64,000 nucleotides of DNA from a virus. The DNA lies in the IMG/VR virus record IMGVR_UViG_3300017963_000239, positions 17,880 to 81,879 of that record. One strand, 5' to 3'. Shown here piece by piece: positions 1-22,908 of the stretch (positions are counted from its first letter, which is position 1; every line of letters begins with the position of its first letter). The position numbers and the translations under genes were made by a program. A model generated the notes under the pieces. The model had not been told where the DNA came from, did not search any database, and saw only the letters and a list, made by a program, of their open reading frames with translations.

Positions 1-2
1 CC

Positions 3-182
3 ATTCCTGGTGGTGAGGGTGCTCATCTGACCCCGCAGGACGTCGACCCCGAGCAGTTGGCTTTGGGGGCCGCGGTCGAGATGGAGCACACGAAGGACCC
101 GAAGACGGCCATGGAGATCGCGCTCGATCACTTGGCCGAAGACCCGAAGTACTACGACAAGCTGCTGTCGCTCGGGCTCTGA
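3..182 (+). CDS. DUF5661-like phage protein, 3' part (truncated by window start)
   Basis: Frame reads ...QLALGAAVEMEHTKDPKTAMEIALDHLAEDPKYYDKL; G..VE.EHT/DHL.E.P.YY motif. Confidence 0.6.
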   Translation: MPGGEGAHLTPQDVDPEQLALGAAVEMEHTKDPKTAMEIALDHLAEDPKYYDKLLSLGL

Positions 183-257
183 GCAGCAACACATAGCTCC
201 ACGGAGGAGCGTTCCGAGCACTGGAACTTCACGTGCTCCTCCGTTTCTTTGCGTCTT

Positions 258-332
258 GGGGATGTGGTCTAGCTAGGCGAGGACGCTGGATTGTCGATCC
301 AGAGGTCGCGGGTTCGAATCCCGTCATCCCCG
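258..332 (+). tRNA. tRNA-Asp(GTC)
   Basis: GGGGATG/CATCCCC acceptor; CTGGA-TTGTCGA-TCCAG anticodon arm; GGTTCGAATCC T arm. Confidence 0.9.
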
Positions 333-334
333 CT

Positions 335-375
335 GTGGTCGTAGCTCAATCGGTAGAGCGTCTGGATGTGGCCCA
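335..375 (+). pseudogene. 5' fragment of disrupted resident tRNA-His(GTG)
   Basis: GTGGTCG-TAGCTCAATCGGTAGAGC-G-TCTGG-ATGTGGC, then breaks off; matching 3' piece at 884-910. Confidence 0.8.
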
Positions 376-395
376 AAAGTGTTAGGCTCACAACC

Positions 396-824
396 ATGCC
401 AGCGAAGACCAAGAAGTGTGGGAAGTGCCAGAAGCGCAAGCCTGTGGATCAGTTTTACTGGAAGGACAAGGCGCGGGGGACGAGGCATTCGTACTGCAGG
501 GCGTGTTTCGCCGCGCGCCACAAGACTTACTACCAGGAGAACAAGCAGTACTACTTGGAGAAGAAGGCGCGCTGCAAGCAGAGGCTCCGCGAGTATGTGA
601 ACGAACTGAAGCGCGCGCCGTGTACGGACTGTGGCCGGACGTACCCGCCCTACGTGATGGACTTTGATCACTTGAATGGGGAGGAGAAGGGGGGCCTCGT
701 GGCGCATTTGGTGGCGCAGGGGCAGGTTCGGAGAGCCAAAGAAGAGATAGCTAAGTGCGAGCTGGTATGCGCCAACTGTCACAGGATCAGAACGCACGAA
801 AGACGTATGGAGGTCGTAGCCTAA
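396..824 (+). CDS. HNH endonuclease with Zn-finger motifs (His cassette)
   Basis: CxxC motifs, DFDHL...KCELVCANCHRIRT; stop codon lies within the following tRNA-His. Confidence 0.85.
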   Translation: MPAKTKKCGKCQKRKPVDQFYWKDKARGTRHSYCRACFAARHKTYYQENKQYYLEKKARCKQRLREYVNELKRAPCTDCGRTYPPYVMDFDHLNGEEKGGLVAHLVAQGQVRRAKEEIAKCELVCANCHRIRTHERRMEVVA

Positions 825-881
825 CGGTTAAGGCACAGGATTGTGGCTCCTGGTATGCCGGTTCGATTCCGGTCGATCTCC
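809..881 (+). tRNA. tRNA-His(GTG), replacement copy
   Basis: G-1:C73; GAGGTCG/CGATCTC acceptor; CAGGA-TTGTGGC-TCCTG. Confidence 0.9.
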
Positions 882-883
882 CC

Positions 884-910
884 GGTGGTCGAGTCCGCTC
901 GGTCACCCCA
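884..910 (+). pseudogene. 3' fragment (T arm, acceptor strand, CCA) of resident tRNA-His
   Basis: GGTGG-TCGAGT-CCGCT-CGGTCAC-C-CCA; CGGTCAC pairs with GTGGTCG at 335. Confidence 0.75.
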
Positions 911-993
911 CTACGCCCCTGGAGCCGGGTACTCCGGCGGGGCCAACAAGGAGAAGAAGAGAGACAAGGGTGTGGCAACCCAGGCAGGTAGCC

Positions 994-2151
994 ATGAACA
1001 AGGTACACGTGAACGTCGGAACCATCGGACACATCGACCATGGGAAGACGACCCTCACCGCGGCGATCACCAAGGTGATGGCGGAGCTTCACGGTGGGAA
1101 GGTGGTCCCCTTCAACAAGATCGACAACGCACCGGAAGAGCAGAAGCGCGGCGTGACCATCAACACGTCGCACGTGGAGTACGAGTCGGCGACGCGGCAC
1201 TACGCGCACGTCGACTGTCCGGGGCACGCTGACTACATCAAGAACATGATCACCGGTGCGGCCCAGATGGACGGCGCGGTGCTTCTGGTCGATGGGTCGC
1301 AGGGTCCGCAGGTGCAGACCAAGGAGCACATCCTGCTTGCGAAGCAGGTGGGTGTGGAGAGGATGGTGGTGTTCATCAACAAGGTGGACATCGCAGACCC
1401 CGAGCTGCTGGAGTTGGTCGCCTTGGAGACGGCCGAGCATCTGGAGGCGCAGGGATACGAGGACTCTCCGGTGGTCCAGGGCTCCGCTCTGAAGGCTCTG
1501 GAGGGCTCTGAGACGGGCTGCATCGTCGAGCTGGTCGAAGCCATGGACAGGCACTTCCCGGACCCTGTGAGGGACTTCGAGGCGCCTTTCATGCTGCCTA
1601 TCGAGGGAGTCCACACCATCGAAGGCCGCGGCACTGTGGTCACCGGTCGTGTGGAGCGTGGTGTGTTGCCTCTCGGGGCGACGGTCGAGATCATCGGTCT
1701 GGTGGACGAGGACTCCAAGCCTCGCCAGGTCGTGGTCACGGGCATCCAGATGTTCCACAAGGACCAACCCGAAGCGCGGGCCGGAGAGAACTGTGGCCTG
1801 TTGCTGCGCGGTGTTCGTCGGGACGAGGTGGTTCGGGGTCAGGTGCTCATCGTGCCGGGCTCCGTGCGGTCTCACATGAAGGCGAAGGCCGAGCTGTTCG
1901 TGTTGTCGAAGGAGGACGGGGGTCGGCACACTCCGATCTTCAAGGGCTACCGCCCACAGTTCTTCTTCGGCACGACCAACGTCACGGGCACCGTGGCGGA
2001 CATCGGCGAGCTGGACTTGGTCAAGCCTGGCGAGCACGCCGAAGTAGCGCTGGAGTTGCAGAAGCCTGTCGGCATGGAAGCTGGCATGCGATTCGCTGTT
2101 CGTGAGAGCAGCAAGACCGTCGCTGCAGGTGTGGTCCTCAGCGTCACGTAG
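994..2151 (+). CDS. tuf: Elongation factor Tu
   Basis: [61 protein letters not shown]. Confidence 0.95.
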
Positions 2152-2183
2152 AACGGGCAGGCCGGTCCCGCAAACCGGCCATT

Positions 2184-2260
2184 GGGGATGTGGTGCAGTC
2201 GCGTAGCACACTTGCCTGTCACGCAAGAGGTCGCGGGTTCAAGTCCCGTCATCCCCGCCA
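2184..2260 (+). tRNA. tRNA-Asp(GTC)
   Basis: CTTGC-CTGTCAC-GCAAG; encoded CCA. Confidence 0.9.
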
Positions 2261-2289
2261 AGCGCCCATCGGATCAGATCAAACAAGCA

Positions 2290-2362
2290 TCCTACGTAGC
2301 TCAGATGGTAGAGCAGCGGCCTCTCAAGCCGCCGGCCATGGGTTCAATTCCCATCGCGGGTA
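2290..2362 (+). tRNA. tRNA-Glu(CTC), imperfect acceptor stem
   Basis: GCGGC-CTCTCAA-GCCGC; D and T arms intact; two acceptor mismatches. Confidence 0.65.
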
Positions 2363-2398
2363 ACACAACATGATCTTTTCACTCGGGCGCCCATTTTT

Positions 2399-2935
2399 CT
2401 AGGGCTCGTGACATCCTCGGCACCTCGCCTCGTAGGACTCGGCGCCGCCGACTTTCACTTGTTCTTCACCATGCACGAGCCTCTGGGTTCGACTGGCTTC
2501 CTTGCCGCACCGGGAGCACACAGCGCGTACTTTGGTCACGGTTTCAGCGATGGCCATCAACTCAGGGACAGGGTGGAAGGGGCGCCCCTGAAAGTCTTGG
2601 TCTAGGCCGGCGACGATGACGCGGTAGCCCTTGTCTGCCAGGATGTTGATTCCATCGATCATGTCGTTGTCGAAGAACTGCGCTTCGTCGATGGCTACGA
2701 CGTCGGTCTCAGGCTTGACGCGACGAATGAGATCGTAGCTCGAAGCCACTGGCTCGGCTTCGATGTCGATCCCTTGGTGGCTTACGATCTTCTCTTTGGC
2801 GTAGCGGTCGTCAACGGACGGCTTGAACGCCTGAACGGTTTGCTTCGCGAACAGGGCTCGGCGCACGCGGCGGATCAACTCTTCGGTTTTGCCGCTGAAC
2901 ATCGAGCCCACAACAACTTCAACATGTCCTGACAT
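2399..2935 (-). CDS. tdk: Thymidine kinase
   Basis: [29 protein letters not shown]-terminal Zn motifs and YEARCR. Confidence 0.95.
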
Positions 2936-3018: not shown

Positions 3019-3068
3019 GGGCCAGTAGCTCAGTAGGTTAGAGCGTCCGCCTGATAAGCGGGAGGTCG
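3019..3068 (+). pseudogene. Truncated resident tRNA-Ile(GAT) lacking T arm and 3' acceptor strand
   Basis: GGGCCAG-TAGCTCAGTAGGTTAGAGC-G-TCCGC-CTGATAA-GCGGG-AGGTCG, then non-tRNA sequence. Confidence 0.8.
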
Positions 3069-3093
3069 TTTATTCTAACCTGGACAATTTCTT

Positions 3094-3165
3094 GGACTGC
3101 AATGCTCTGGTTGAGCTACGATGCCTGATAAGCATCGTGGCGGGGTCCAATTCCCCGGCGGTCCA
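3094..3165 (+). tRNA. Atypical tRNA-Ile(GAT), replacement copy
   Basis: GGACTGC/GCGGTCC acceptor; GATGC-CTGATAA-GCATC; T loop TCCAATT; A at position 8. Confidence 0.75.
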
Positions 3166-3168
3166 CCG

Positions 3169-3744
3169 ATGAGCAAACAACGCAGGGATTCCCAGGGCCG
3201 TCTTCTTCTAGAATTTCGGTGTCCTTGTGGGAAGAGGTTCTGGGCACGCCCCAGACCTCCGAACAAGTCGGGGAAGCGGTATTGTAGCTTGGTGTGCTAC
3301 GGGAGGCTTAGGGACTTTTCTGGATCTAAAAACCCCAACTGGAGGGGAGGGTCGTTCCAGAGTGGCAAGGGTTACTGGTATGTTCATATGCCAGATCATC
3401 ACCGAGCGATGAAGAATGGCTACGTCAAGAGGGCGGATGTTGTAGCCGAGAAGAAGATCGGGAGGAAGTTGTTGCCTAACGAGGTGGTGCACCACGAAGA
3501 TTCAGATCCGAGCAACGACAGCCTAGACAACCTAGTGGTCAAGGACTCCCTAGCGCATATCAGAGAGCACGCAGTGAAGAGGCGAAAGCCTAAGAAGTCA
3601 AAGAAGGCTCGAAAGTCTGTTTGTTGGCCCTCCGATAGCGTGCTTTTGGAGATGGCTAAGACCATGACACAGCGCCAAATGGCAACGCTTCTTGGGTGCA
3701 GTCAGCCCGCCGTATTCTATCGCCTGCACCGTTCTCGTCGTTGA
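3169..3744 (+). CDS. HNH endonuclease with C-terminal HTH (Ile cassette)
   Basis: NPNWRGG, EVVHHEDSDPSNDSLDNL, TQRQMATLLGCSQPAV. Confidence 0.85.
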   Translation: MSKQRRDSQGRLLLEFRCPCGKRFWARPRPPNKSGKRYCSLVCYGRLRDFSGSKNPNWRGGSFQSGKGYWYVHMPDHHRAMKNGYVKRADVVAEKKIGRKLLPNEVVHHEDSDPSNDSLDNLVVKDSLAHIREHAVKRRKPKKSKKARKSVCWPSDSVLLEMAKTMTQRQMATLLGCSQPAVFYRLHRSRR

Positions 3745-4161: not shown

Positions 4162-4191
4162 GGGCCTGTAGCTCAGCTGGGAGAGCGCTTC
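4162..4191 (+). pseudogene. 5' half of disrupted resident tRNA-Ala
   Basis: GGGCCTGTAGCTCAGCTGGGAGAGCGCT identical to the start of intact tRNA-Ala at 5462. Confidence 0.85.
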
Positions 4192-4207
4192 GTGCTACAC
4201 TGGCAAA

Positions 4208-4699
4208 ATGCTGGAAGTGGTTGTGAGGTACGAGAAACCTGGAGATCCGTATGTCCGTGTTCGGCTGTCGGATGGCCGGGTCGTGCGTGAGCACAGGTTC
4301 ATCATGGAGTGCAAGCTAGGTCGGAAGCTCTCCCCTAGCGAGCACGTCCATCATAAGGACTTGAACCCCCGGAACAACGAGGAGAGCAACTTAGAATTGA
4401 AGTCGCGGGCGGATCACTGCCGCCTGCACCGCCCTGTGGCGCGGAAGGTTAGACTGCGCTGTCCTACTTGCGGGTGTTGTTTCGAACGCACTGCCAGGTA
4501 TGTCAGGTCCAAGAAGAAGCTAGGCCAGCACAGTTTCTTCTGCGGTCGTAGCTGCCGGGGACCTAGGGGCGGAGAAACAACACGAAAGGTCACCGCGCAT
4601 GGGTCTCGCGGAGGCTATTTGAGGGGCTGTCGGTGTGCTGAGTGTCGAGAGGCGCAGGCGCACTACATGCGCGAGTACAGATCAAAGGGGCTGTGGTGA
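4208..4699 (+). CDS. HNH endonuclease (Ala-GGC cassette)
   Basis: REHRFIME..LGRKL...EHVHHKDLNPRNNEESNLE; C-terminal HG..GCRC..C module. Confidence 0.9.
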   Translation: MLEVVVRYEKPGDPYVRVRLSDGRVVREHRFIMECKLGRKLSPSEHVHHKDLNPRNNEESNLELKSRADHCRLHRPVARKVRLRCPTCGCCFERTARYVRSKKKLGQHSFFCGRSCRGPRGGETTRKVTAHGSRGGYLRGCRCAECREAQAHYMREYRSKGLW

Positions 4700-4757
4700 A
4701 AGGGGATCACGCAACCATGGCATGGTTGTATTACGGGTTCGAATCCCGTCAGCTCCA
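4687..4757 (+). tRNA. tRNA-Ala(GGC), replacement copy
   Basis: GGGGCTG/CAGCTCC with G3:U70; CAACC-ATGGCAT-GGTTG. Confidence 0.9.
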
Positions 4758-4774
4758 CTAGGGACCTTCCGGTC

Positions 4775-4812
4775 GGCGGGGGTCGGGGGTTCGAGTCCCC
4801 CTAGGTCCACCA
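4775..4812 (+). pseudogene. 3' half of disrupted resident tRNA-Ala
   Basis: GGGTC-GGGGG-TTCGAGT-CCCCC-TAGGTCC-A-CCA; pairs with GGGCCTG at 4162. Confidence 0.85.
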
Positions 4813-5630: not shown

Positions 5631-5660
5631 GGGCTCATAGCTCAGATGGGAGAGCGCGGC
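5631..5660 (+). pseudogene. 5' half of disrupted resident tRNA-Ala(TGC)
   Basis: GGGCTCA-TAGCTCAGATGGGAGAGC-G-CGGC. Confidence 0.85.
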
Positions 5661-5698
5661 ATATTGCAACTGGAGATCGTCGCTGATACTGTACCTGT

Positions 5699-6088
5699 AT
5701 GGGGTACAAGTTCGTTAAGGCTCCCTCTAGCTATCCGGGCAGAACGTATCGCTGGGGCAACCGAGTTCTGGAGCACCACTTGGTATGGTGGGAGAACACA
5801 GGACAGGTCGTTCCGGAAGGGTACGTTGTTCACCATCTGAATGAAGACAAGGAGGACAATCGTTTCGGGAACCTCGCGCTGAAGAAGCGTGGGGAGCACA
5901 CAACGGATCACCAATTGAAGGATCCGCCTGTGGCGTTGGTGTGCTCTTGGTGCGGGAAGAAGATCGAACGTAGCTCTAGAGATGTTCGAAGCAAACGCAA
6001 GCAAGGGCAGAGTCGTTTCTTCTGTTGTTCCGCTCACGCAGCCGCTGCGGGTTGGTCGAGCAGAAGAGCGAGAGGGGTCATCGTCTAA
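5699..6088 (+). CDS. HNH endonuclease (Ala-TGC cassette)
   Basis: LEHHLVWW...VVHHLNEDKEDNRFGNL; CxxC...FFCC. Confidence 0.9.
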   Translation: MGYKFVKAPSSYPGRTYRWGNRVLEHHLVWWENTGQVVPEGYVVHHLNEDKEDNRFGNLALKKRGEHTTDHQLKDPPVALVCSWCGKKIERSSRDVRSKRKQGQSRFFCCSAHAAAAGWSSRRARGVIV

Positions 6089-6145
6089 TCGGGAGGACGC
6101 TAGCCTTGCACGCTGGTAATACGGGTTCGAGTCCCGTTGGCTCCA
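6074..6145 (+). tRNA. tRNA-Ala(TGC), replacement copy
   Basis: GGGGTCA/TGGCTCC; CTAGC-CTTGCAC-GCTGG. Confidence 0.9.
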
Positions 6146-6250
6146 CTGCGGCAACGTGTGGTCGTCCGCAGGGCTTGACCCGTCCCTGCTAAGTGATCAC
6201 GCAAGATCCCTAACGGGTCGCACAAAGCCGGAAGGCGTGGGGACGCCGCG

Positions 6251-18507: not shown

Positions 18508-18853
18508 GGGCTCGATCGGTTTCGACGTGGAGGAAAGGAAAGATTCGCGTGTAGGCAGCGCTCGACCTGCCTTGATCAATCGAGCAATTTGCAGTTGCCA
18601 ACGACAACAGCACCCCTCTGGCCGCGAAGGCGGCCTGAGCGCTGGGCGGGTAGGAGTCCGAGTACCCCGCAGGCGCCAATACCACACGGACTGTGCTCGG
18701 GGAGGTTGGCACCGCCGATGCCCGAGCGAGACTTTCGGTGCTGGACAGGCTGGAGAGACGGCCAAGCCCTGCTGTGAGGGTAGATCAGCTACGCACGTGA
18801 ACGAGGATCTTGACGGAACTCGGCGGACCAGGGTTCGATTCCCTGCGGGTCCA
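18508..18853 (+). ncRNA. ssrA: tmRNA; tag (A)NDNSTPLAAKAA at 18597-18638
   Basis: 5' GGGCTCGATCGGTTTCGAC; 3' GGGTTCGATTCCC...GGGTCCA with G3:U70; ANDN...AA reading frame. Confidence 0.92.
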
Positions 18854-18906
18854 CGAAGTCTCCATTGAGCATTGCAGGGAGCGTCCATAAGAGGTACATT
18901 GGTCGA

Positions 18907-22244: not shown

Positions 22245-22275
22245 CTCGTGGCCCCGGAGCGAAACGGGGCAACCA

Positions 22276-22305
22276 CGGGATGTGGCCTAGTCTGGTTAAG
22301 GCGCC
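22276..22305 (+). pseudogene. 5' half of disrupted resident tRNA-Pro
   Basis: CGGGATG-TGGCCTAGTCTGGTTAAGGC-GCC, then breaks off. Confidence 0.8.
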
Positions 22306-22331
22306 AAGCTTTTGCTAGGCTAGGCTACATC

Positions 22332-22841
22332 ATGTGGAAGCTGCGGGGTCGGAAGCGGGAGAGTAAAGGGCTGTCAGGGTACGAAACAGTCTGTCTTCCG
22401 GAGCACCCGAAGGCGGACGGTCGTGGTCGTGTGTATCTCCATAGGGTTCTGATGGAGAACCACTTAGGGCGCGTGTTAGGGGAAGATGAAGTTGTCCATC
22501 ACAAGAATGGTGACCCCCGAGACAATAGGATCAAAAATTTGGAGATCCTATCGAGAGTGGACCATGCCGCGTTCCACGGGAAAGCCCGACGCGGTCGGGT
22601 CGAAGAGTGCGAGTGCGCGAATTGTGGGACTCGGTTTGAGCGCCTTCGGAGGAAGCTTCAGGGGCAGCGAACCTTTTGCAGTAGGCGCTGTGTGATGCTT
22701 TTCTACAAGCCCCGGCCGCCTCGTACACCGAGGGTCGTAGAGCACGGCACGAACTCCATGTACAAGAACCACGGCTGTCGCTGTTTTGACTGCCGCCGTG
22801 CTCATGCCGAGGCCATGAAGTCGTACAGAAACGGGGTGTAG
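22332..22841 (+). CDS. HNH endonuclease (Pro-GGG cassette)
   Basis: LHRVLMENHLGR.L..DEVVHHKNGDPRDNRIKNLE; HG..GCRC..C module. Confidence 0.9.
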   Translation: MWKLRGRKRESKGLSGYETVCLPEHPKADGRGRVYLHRVLMENHLGRVLGEDEVVHHKNGDPRDNRIKNLEILSRVDHAAFHGKARRGRVEECECANCGTRFERLRRKLQGQRTFCSRRCVMLFYKPRPPRTPRVVEHGTNSMYKNHGCRCFDCRRAHAEAMKSYRNGV

Positions 22842-22908
22842 TTCAGCTTGGAAGAACGCCGCGCTGGGGGCGCGGAGGCCGGAGGTTCAAATCCTCTCAT
22901 CCCGACCA
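22832..22908 (+). tRNA. tRNA-Pro(GGG), replacement/restored copy
   Basis: CCGCG-CTGGGGG-CGCGG; CCA. Confidence 0.9.

Follow-up and report, generated by a model that had tools for sequence, protein, structure and literature searches.

A tRNA-His gene in a phage tRNA array interrupted by an HNH endonuclease gene and a second, complete tRNA-His

The stretch of DNA analysed here, termed the window, is 64,000 nucleotides long and covers bases 17880–81879 of an 81.9-kb IMG/VR virus record, the completeness of which is estimated at 54%. It derives from an uncultured, GC-rich phage and carries an array of 37 tRNA genes together with a tmRNA gene, for the most part on the plus strand (ARAGORN). The phage-encoded tmRNA (18508–18854, plus strand) scores 92 bits with Rfam and specifies the tag peptide ANDNSTPLAAKAA. 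Close to the start of the window a tRNA-Asp gene (258–333) is followed directly by the locus that is the subject of this report, and beyond the locus lies a full-length EF-Tu gene (994–2151, plus strand; Pfam domains GTP_EFTU, D2 and D3), itself situated inside the phage tRNA array. Homologues of this EF-Tu with 48–77% identity are present on IMG/VR contigs that reach 619 kb in length, and many of these homologues likewise lie within tRNA arrays.

Between tRNA-Asp and the EF-Tu gene, at positions 335–910, four components follow one another on the plus strand: the 5′ part of a resident (old) tRNA-His gene, an HNH endonuclease gene, a complete tRNA-His of different sequence and the 3′ part of the old tRNA-His. 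A first-pass annotation, made by a model from the letters alone, had named all four, and all four are there with slightly refined bounds. It had placed the old 5′ part, with its GTG anticodon, at 335–375; this part is present, but its right-hand bound is better set at 379. The segment 335–379 comprises the acceptor strand GTGGTCG, a canonical D arm, the GTG anticodon arm, the stem of which carries one C·A mismatch, and the first bases of the variable loop. Rfam gives a sub-threshold tRNA match at 335–398 (24.7 bits). The left end of the insert (380–395) is a 16-nt leader ahead of the start codon of the HNH gene (396–824), which encodes 142 amino acids. The HNH gene runs into the new tRNA-His(GTG): its stop codon (822–824) falls within the D loop, and the 5′ end of the tRNA supplies the last five codons of the nuclease gene as well as this stop codon. 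The new tRNA-His occupies 809–883 (810–881/883 in ARAGORN) and is complete, with G-1 at 809 and C73 at 881, and without an encoded CCA.

The old tRNA-His then resumes. Its T-arm remnant (884–898, plus strand; GGTGG, TCGAGT and CCGC in the ARAGORN fold of the joined pieces) is followed by the 3′ end of the gene (899–910, plus strand), consisting of the last T-stem base, the acceptor strand CGGTCAC, C73 and an encoded CCA, and running on into the EF-Tu flank. As the first-pass annotation had proposed, CGGTCAC pairs with GTGGTCG (335–341) at 7/7 positions, two of the pairs being G·U. Within 884–910 the T stem forms between GGTGG and CCGCT around a loop of 6 nt, one base short. The interruption falls after the anticodon arm, at about tRNA positions 45–48 in the variable-loop/T-arm region, and the block 380–898 holds only the HNH ORF, the new tRNA and the 15-nt T-arm remnant. 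The suggestion that the two old parts would fold as tRNA-His once joined survives in modified form: the exact join of 335–375 to 884–910 yields nothing with ARAGORN, but 335–380 joined to 884–910 gives a 73-nt tRNA-His. The reading of the locus as a split tRNA-His accompanied by an HNH gene and a replacement tRNA-His is supported by these features. Remnants such as 335–379 can be mistaken for tRNA genes or for tRNA mimics.

The new tRNA-His is of the bacterial type, with a cloverleaf fold, a GTG anticodon and an encoded G-1 opposite C73, in keeping with its original description as a complete and differently sequenced tRNA-His. It matches the Rfam tRNA family RF00005 at 62.1 bits, against a gathering score of 29, with acceptor pairing of 7/7, and it is the sole tRNA-His of the 81.9-kb contig, the remaining 17.9 kb of the record having been searched as well. 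Compared with an intact old allele (described below), 50 of its 75 positions are identical (67%), and the differences extend into the 19-nt region that is replaced at the insertion site. The old allele likewise has a cloverleaf and a GTG anticodon; it has no encoded G-1, with T at position −1 (334) and C73 at 907. A T at −1 is also found in three of the 16 phage tRNA-His genes that have the same 5′ 25-mer (L089, L092 and L093). CCA is encoded by the old allele and not by the tRNA-His carried in the insert (the cargo).

The ORF at 396–824, placed by the first-pass annotation between the two old pieces as an HNH gene, matches phrog_2255, 'HNH endonuclease', with an E-value of 5e-32, and a phmmer comparison with the Gme HNH nicking endonuclease (4h9d) gives an E-value of 0.0055; a Pfam search of the ORF returned no HNH match. 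In the protein, a Cys4 zinc ribbon at the N terminus is connected by a helical linker to an HNH core (DFDH … CANCH), and the sequence displays the DH motif, the CxxCH motif and the zinc-binding cysteines expected of the HNH class. Across 14 homologues, the ribbon cysteines C8, C11, C34 and C37 are invariant, as are C76, C79, D89, D91, H92, C125, C128 and H129 of the core, and N127 is nearly so. An AF2 model has a pLDDT of 92.8. Structural comparisons of the model agree with a beta-beta-alpha-metal fold but give middling scores: residues 61–142 align with 4h9d (Z 5.5, rmsd 3.2, 62 aligned residues), the model aligns with T4 endonuclease VII at Z 4.8, the N-terminal ribbon aligns with part of Hpy99I, and the best Foldseek E-value is only 0.12. 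Judged from its family match, its conserved residues and its structure model, the HNH gene looks intact. One homologue, P0031 (44% identity), ends in the same C-terminal MEVVA that in the window is encoded by G-1 and the first cargo bases, which hints that this distant relative may be fused to a similar tRNA-His.

The HNH ORF is free-standing, with no surrounding self-splicing intron or intein and only the 16-nt leader before it; a search of window 1–32000 with Rfam intron families, at E-values up to 1, produced no match. A group I intron in a tRNA gene was considered and rejected, there being no match to an intron model and an insertion point after the anticodon arm rather than in the anticodon loop. 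Membership of the SegB-like GIY-YIG nucleases was set aside too, all family matches being to HNH or endonuclease VII proteins. An integrase-mediated island was also discarded: there is no integrase in 380–898, and what flanks this block is not a repeat but the two complementary halves of a single gene.

Uninterrupted forms of the locus were sought in metagenomes, using window 150–1150 to find public runs and comparing Logan contigs from four of these runs with window 1–2400. One run, X2, is a seawater metagenome from an independent study and has the filled form; its 2010-nt contig spans window positions 1–1051 with 2 differences. The other three have empty sites. In each of two wetland metagenomes, X3 and X4, a contig follows the window as far as 379, continues with 19 other letters and picks up again at 899; the joint lies at 379/380, and the 16-nt leader of the filled form is missing. 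The X3 contig (record 10) has 1 difference from the window over 899–1250. In a sediment metagenome, X5, an 835-nt contig matches 1–375 with 20 differences and 904–1220 with 10 differences, linking 375 to 904 via 28 other letters. Depth over 401–800 is nil in X3, X4 and X5, the contigs bridging the site there have no HNH gene, and the flanks of their contigs are about 95% to over 99% identical to the window. The locus is a presence/absence polymorphism: the window and X2 have the insert, and X3, X4 and X5 lack it. When the two empty alleles are rebuilt from window coordinates and the letters reported from the contigs, each folds as a canonical tRNA-His of 76 nt, in which the variable loop has 5 nt and the T loop 7 nt. 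The uninterrupted homologue for which the first-pass annotation had called therefore exists in relatives, where it occupies the corresponding place, with tRNA-Asp on one side and the EF-Tu gene on the other, and the whole alleles of these near-identical phages exclude a chance origin of the split arrangement.

Several other routes to relatives of the locus were less informative. Blastn against 50,697 phage records brought up nothing related to it, and a search of IMG/VR with the old 5′ 25-mer and with the 19 letters of the X3 empty allele found no close relative of the phage, the matches being unrelated phage tRNA-His genes. IMG/VR relatives of the EF-Tu gene were considered as a source of empty sites and abandoned, with identities of at most 77% and insufficient synteny. 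Among public runs, no RNA runs containing the stretch were found.

Relative to the X3 allele, 519 nt (380–898) stand in place of 19 nt. The T-arm remnant at 884–898 is unlike the T arms of the sampled intact alleles, and the event is therefore a replacement of 19 nt and not a pure insertion. The remnant may come either from a recipient allele that was not sampled or from a short stretch co-converted from the donor. At several paired positions the three T-stem alleles of the old tRNA-His (window, X3/X4 and X5) are not the same, but the changes compensate one another and all three stems pair. Variation in the old tRNA-His is concentrated at the presumed nuclease site, between flanks that are about 95% to over 99% identical. 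By way of conjecture, such local variability of the T arm is what would be expected if the gene were evolving in an arms race against a nuclease recognizing this stretch. The C·A mismatch in the old anticodon stem is probably not a sign of decay, since it is located within the stretch (up to 379) that the window has in common with the X3 and X4 contigs.

The HNH family is large, with 1641 matches at E-values up to 0.001 in a large protein collection, the nearest being P0002 (77% identity) and P0003 (60%). The survey of the family took in 137 homologue loci, drawn from IMG/VR and from metagenomes. At 52 of these, a same-strand tRNA either starts no more than 60 nt from the HNH stop codon or overlaps it, and at about two-thirds of those 52 the HNH stop codon is inside the downstream tRNA (L031, L033, L047, L067, L081 and L103–L181). 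A gap of −10, where the last base of the stop codon is tRNA position 10, is recurrent. At loci with such an overlap, processing by RNase P would take the stop codon off the nuclease mRNA. Remnants of an older tRNA are absent at most homologue loci. The full nested layout is found in three unrelated contigs, at a tRNA-Met (L031), a tRNA-Arg(ACG) (L067) and a tRNA-Arg(CCT) (L124); in all three, the anticodon of the 5′ remnant is that of the cargo tRNA, and the two remnants form 7/7 acceptor-stem pairs, with N73 and CCA after the downstream one. At a further locus, L047, the HNH gene is flanked by two intact tRNA-Pro(TGG) genes.

The nested layout was judged by this explicit 7/7 acceptor pairing instead of by ARAGORN joins. 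Deleting the cassette in silico and running ARAGORN on the join gave 7 same-anticodon tRNAs at the real loci versus 1–5 in swapped or shifted controls, a test that is too permissive, since it is the left remnant that contributes the anticodon and the program will also take a T arm from nearby. An encoded CCA was likewise found not to be usable as a marker of cargo tRNAs: in raw counts, it is present in 1 of 6 HNH-linked tRNAs and in 16 of 31 others. On a tree of HNH proteins, the identity of the linked tRNA is clustered, requiring 26 changes versus a shuffled mean of 32.5, with none of 200 shuffles as low, on what is a quick tree of 68 proteins where near-copies inflate the clustering. Linked tRNA identity also switches between well-supported sister groups, namely Phe versus Gly-GCC and Pro versus Arg-CCT.

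The account of the locus that we propose, and regard as likely, is that the resident tRNA-His gene received a copy of a free-standing HNH homing-endonuclease gene with a tRNA-His already fused to it, and that this copy interrupted its target and brought along a substitute. The resident tRNA-His would have been destroyed, its two ends left as flanking remnants, and a diverged tRNA-His supplied instead. The enzyme would nick or cut the intact old allele in or near the variable-loop/T-arm region; that the HNH protein made this cut is something we infer. Repair from a filled donor during co-infection could then copy the nuclease gene and its cargo into the break. The filled locus would be immune to the enzyme, the target being split and the cargo tRNA being different at the site. 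Under selection, only insertions with a cargo matching the disrupted tRNA would be expected to survive. For spread among related phages, the remnants (45 nt on the left and 12–27 nt on the right) and the surrounding flanks would provide homology. At the junctions themselves there is no obvious homology between cassette and target on either side, and for that reason the first insertion into each tRNA species would need illegitimate joining and not classical homologous homing. The cargo is always the same isoacceptor as the target, and selection offers the best explanation for this: loss of a needed tRNA would be tolerated only when a replacement is provided.

The lack of clear homology at both junctions would also suit a different history, where the HNH gene is a passenger in a block that entered by illegitimate recombination or through a break made by another nuclease, and its product acts on some other target, or on none at all. 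A second HNH family has at least five genes in the same array, any of which could break tRNA genes. Set against this are the tie between this HNH family and tRNA genes at 52 of 137 loci, the recurrence of the nested cognate-in-cognate layout in three unrelated contigs and the physical overlap of the ORF with its cargo tRNA, and we consider a passenger role improbable, if still worth weighing. A good deal less credible is the idea that the interrupted old tRNA-His still works, either as an intron-like or split gene that is rejoined or through halves that pair after processing. Its acceptor pairing is 7/7, its D and anticodon arms are intact and its CCA is encoded, but preservation of the remnants needs no selection if the insertion is as recent as it appears from the single difference in 352 nt of flank in X3. 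The insert matches no group I or other intron family, and the 16 nt between the 5′ part and the ORF leave no room for a ribozyme. Excision by RNase P and 3′ processing of the whole tRNA within the insert would cut the transcript, the T loop of the remnant has 6 nt instead of 7 and a replacement tRNA-His is supplied; this reading is very unlikely.

The direction of change and the integrity of the contig bear on the remaining alternatives. Presence and absence alone do not give a direction, and the filled form might be ancestral, with the uninterrupted alleles of X3, X4 and X5 arising by deletion of the cassette. A deletion cannot, however, create the 19 or 28 letters that form the variable loop and a T arm with a 7-nt loop in the empty alleles; because these letters, and the proper T arm they encode, are absent from the filled form, the direction is insertion and not deletion in the relatives. 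There are, moreover, two different empty alleles, and we give the deletion scenario scarcely any credence. An assembly chimera of two strains is a natural concern with an uncultured viral contig estimated to be 54% complete. Yet the same structure recurs independently in X2, on a 2010-nt contig from another study with 2 differences, which rules out an assembly artefact, and the mixing of strains does not yield the nested order of the remnants; the probability of a chimera is close to nil.

Homing endonuclease genes normally spare their host, being hidden in introns or inteins or placed between genes. Here, the nuclease gene interrupts an RNA gene and would compensate for the damage with the cargo copy. 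Small HNH nicking endonucleases, F-TflI, F-TflII and F-TflIV, are reportedly encoded in the tRNA gene region of phage T5; they resemble the present enzyme as small HNH proteins among phage tRNA genes, and the best structural match of the window HNH, 4h9d, also nicks DNA. To our knowledge, target splitting with a replacement tRNA has not been reported for the T5 enzymes. A mobile endonuclease ORF is said to make a hybrid gene at atp6 in the mitochondria of the fungus Allomyces macrogynus, and this may be viewed, by analogy, as the nearest known conceptual parallel: the endonuclease arrives with a foreign copy of the part that it displaces, and the native part remains as a remnant. That case differs in concerning a protein gene, of which an in-frame fusion replaces the end only, whereas here a whole RNA gene is involved and the target is cut mid-gene. 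The nrdA gene of the T4-like Aeromonas phage Aeh1 is reportedly split by mobE, a free-standing endonuclease gene; there too, a gene that the phage needs is interrupted by an endonuclease gene with no intron around it, but the two gene pieces stay functional as subunits, while at the present locus rescue would come from the cargo copy. HNH group I introns in bacterial tRNA genes share with this locus an HNH gene inside a tRNA gene, and differ from it in that here there is no ribozyme match, the site is not the anticodon loop and the tRNA is replaced instead of spliced.

Within the T4 tRNA gene cluster, SegB is described as a free-standing GIY-YIG homing endonuclease (PMC2330249; also PMC13096335). 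According to the SegB study, the gene is missing from phages T2L, RB1 and RB3, the enzyme cuts the tRNA-Asn gene of those phages, its recognition takes in DNA of the T-psi-C stem-loop (GGTTCRANTCC) and the tRNA genes neighbouring segB are co-inherited with it (PMC2330249); its recognition of the T-psi-C stem-loop DNA sets a precedent for the account proposed here. On these accounts, the two systems have in common a free-standing nuclease in a phage tRNA cluster, its absence from close relatives and a tRNA-gene target in the phage lacking the nuclease. They differ in that SegB belongs to the GIY-YIG class, lies between genes and homes via homologous flanks, whereas the window enzyme is of the HNH class and interrupts its target. 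These accounts of SegB describe neither split target remnants nor an ORF fused to a replacement tRNA of the same isotype (PMC2330249). The T5 enzymes are cited in that study and in PMC5714182. In the tRNA arrays of mycobacteria and mycobacteriophages, HNH genes are the commonest protein genes, and a part in shaping tRNA repertoires has been proposed for them (PMC5966550). A full-text search of a limited literature collection brought up no paper that describes a tRNA gene split in this way and replaced by a copy travelling with an endonuclease. Homing endonucleases of tRNA clusters are known, SegB and the T5 nickases being the closest; the interrupted target and the fused same-isotype replacement tRNA are what is distinctive here.

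The particular value of the locus is that the states before and after the event have both been sampled in nature, at near-identical flanks, and it offers a concrete case in which the movement of tRNA genes between phages can be put to the test. It bears on why phage tRNA arrays hold many tRNA fragments and duplicate isoacceptors, and on whether variation in the T arms of phage tRNAs reflects an arms race with nucleases that target tRNA genes. More speculatively, HNH-plus-tRNA units might constitute a distinct and widespread 'break-and-replace' class of cassette, where an ORF without a stop codon of its own ends in its cargo and inserts into the cognate tRNA genes of unrelated phages, the tRNA gene being the sole landing homology; such cassettes might be a main driver of allele turnover and of the horizontal spread of tRNA genes in phage arrays. 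We offer this generalization tentatively, as a possibility that we would not yet call probable. If it were true, an RNase P cut at the 5′ end of the cargo would remove the stop codon from the nuclease mRNA, and nuclease dosage would be tied to tRNA processing and trans-translation, for which the phage has a tmRNA of its own.

The second HNH family in the array (phrog_14913/7545) is represented by at least five genes, at 3019–3744, 4162–4812, about 5631–6146, about 13130–13774 and 22248–22908. Four of these run into a tRNA or abut one (Ala-GGC, Ala-TGC, Arg-CCG and Pro-GGG), and at the Ile-GAT site the new tRNA comes before the HNH gene. Fragments of old tRNAs lie near several of these genes. 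A degenerate tRNA-Ile (3019–3087; Rfam, 35.9 bits) is located at one such site; at another, the 5′ piece of a tRNA-Ala starts at 4162, and a piece with T arm, acceptor, a G3:U70 pairing and CCA ends at 4812. Directly after tRNA-Ala(GGC), the element at 4762–4812 has the form of an acceptor-plus-T-arm minihelix and matches the mascRNA and tmRNA models of Rfam. Elsewhere in the window, a degenerate tRNA-like element (29243–29330) follows immediately on tRNA-Ser(CGA) and gives a sub-threshold match of 34.5 bits to the Rfam tRNA-Sec model. On the minus strand, a run of tRNA-like elements (10120–10651) has odd anticodons in ARAGORN, namely Tyr-ATA, Ile-AAT and one for which the program determined none, and within this run Rfam finds tRNA matches at 10384–10468 and 10569–10651.
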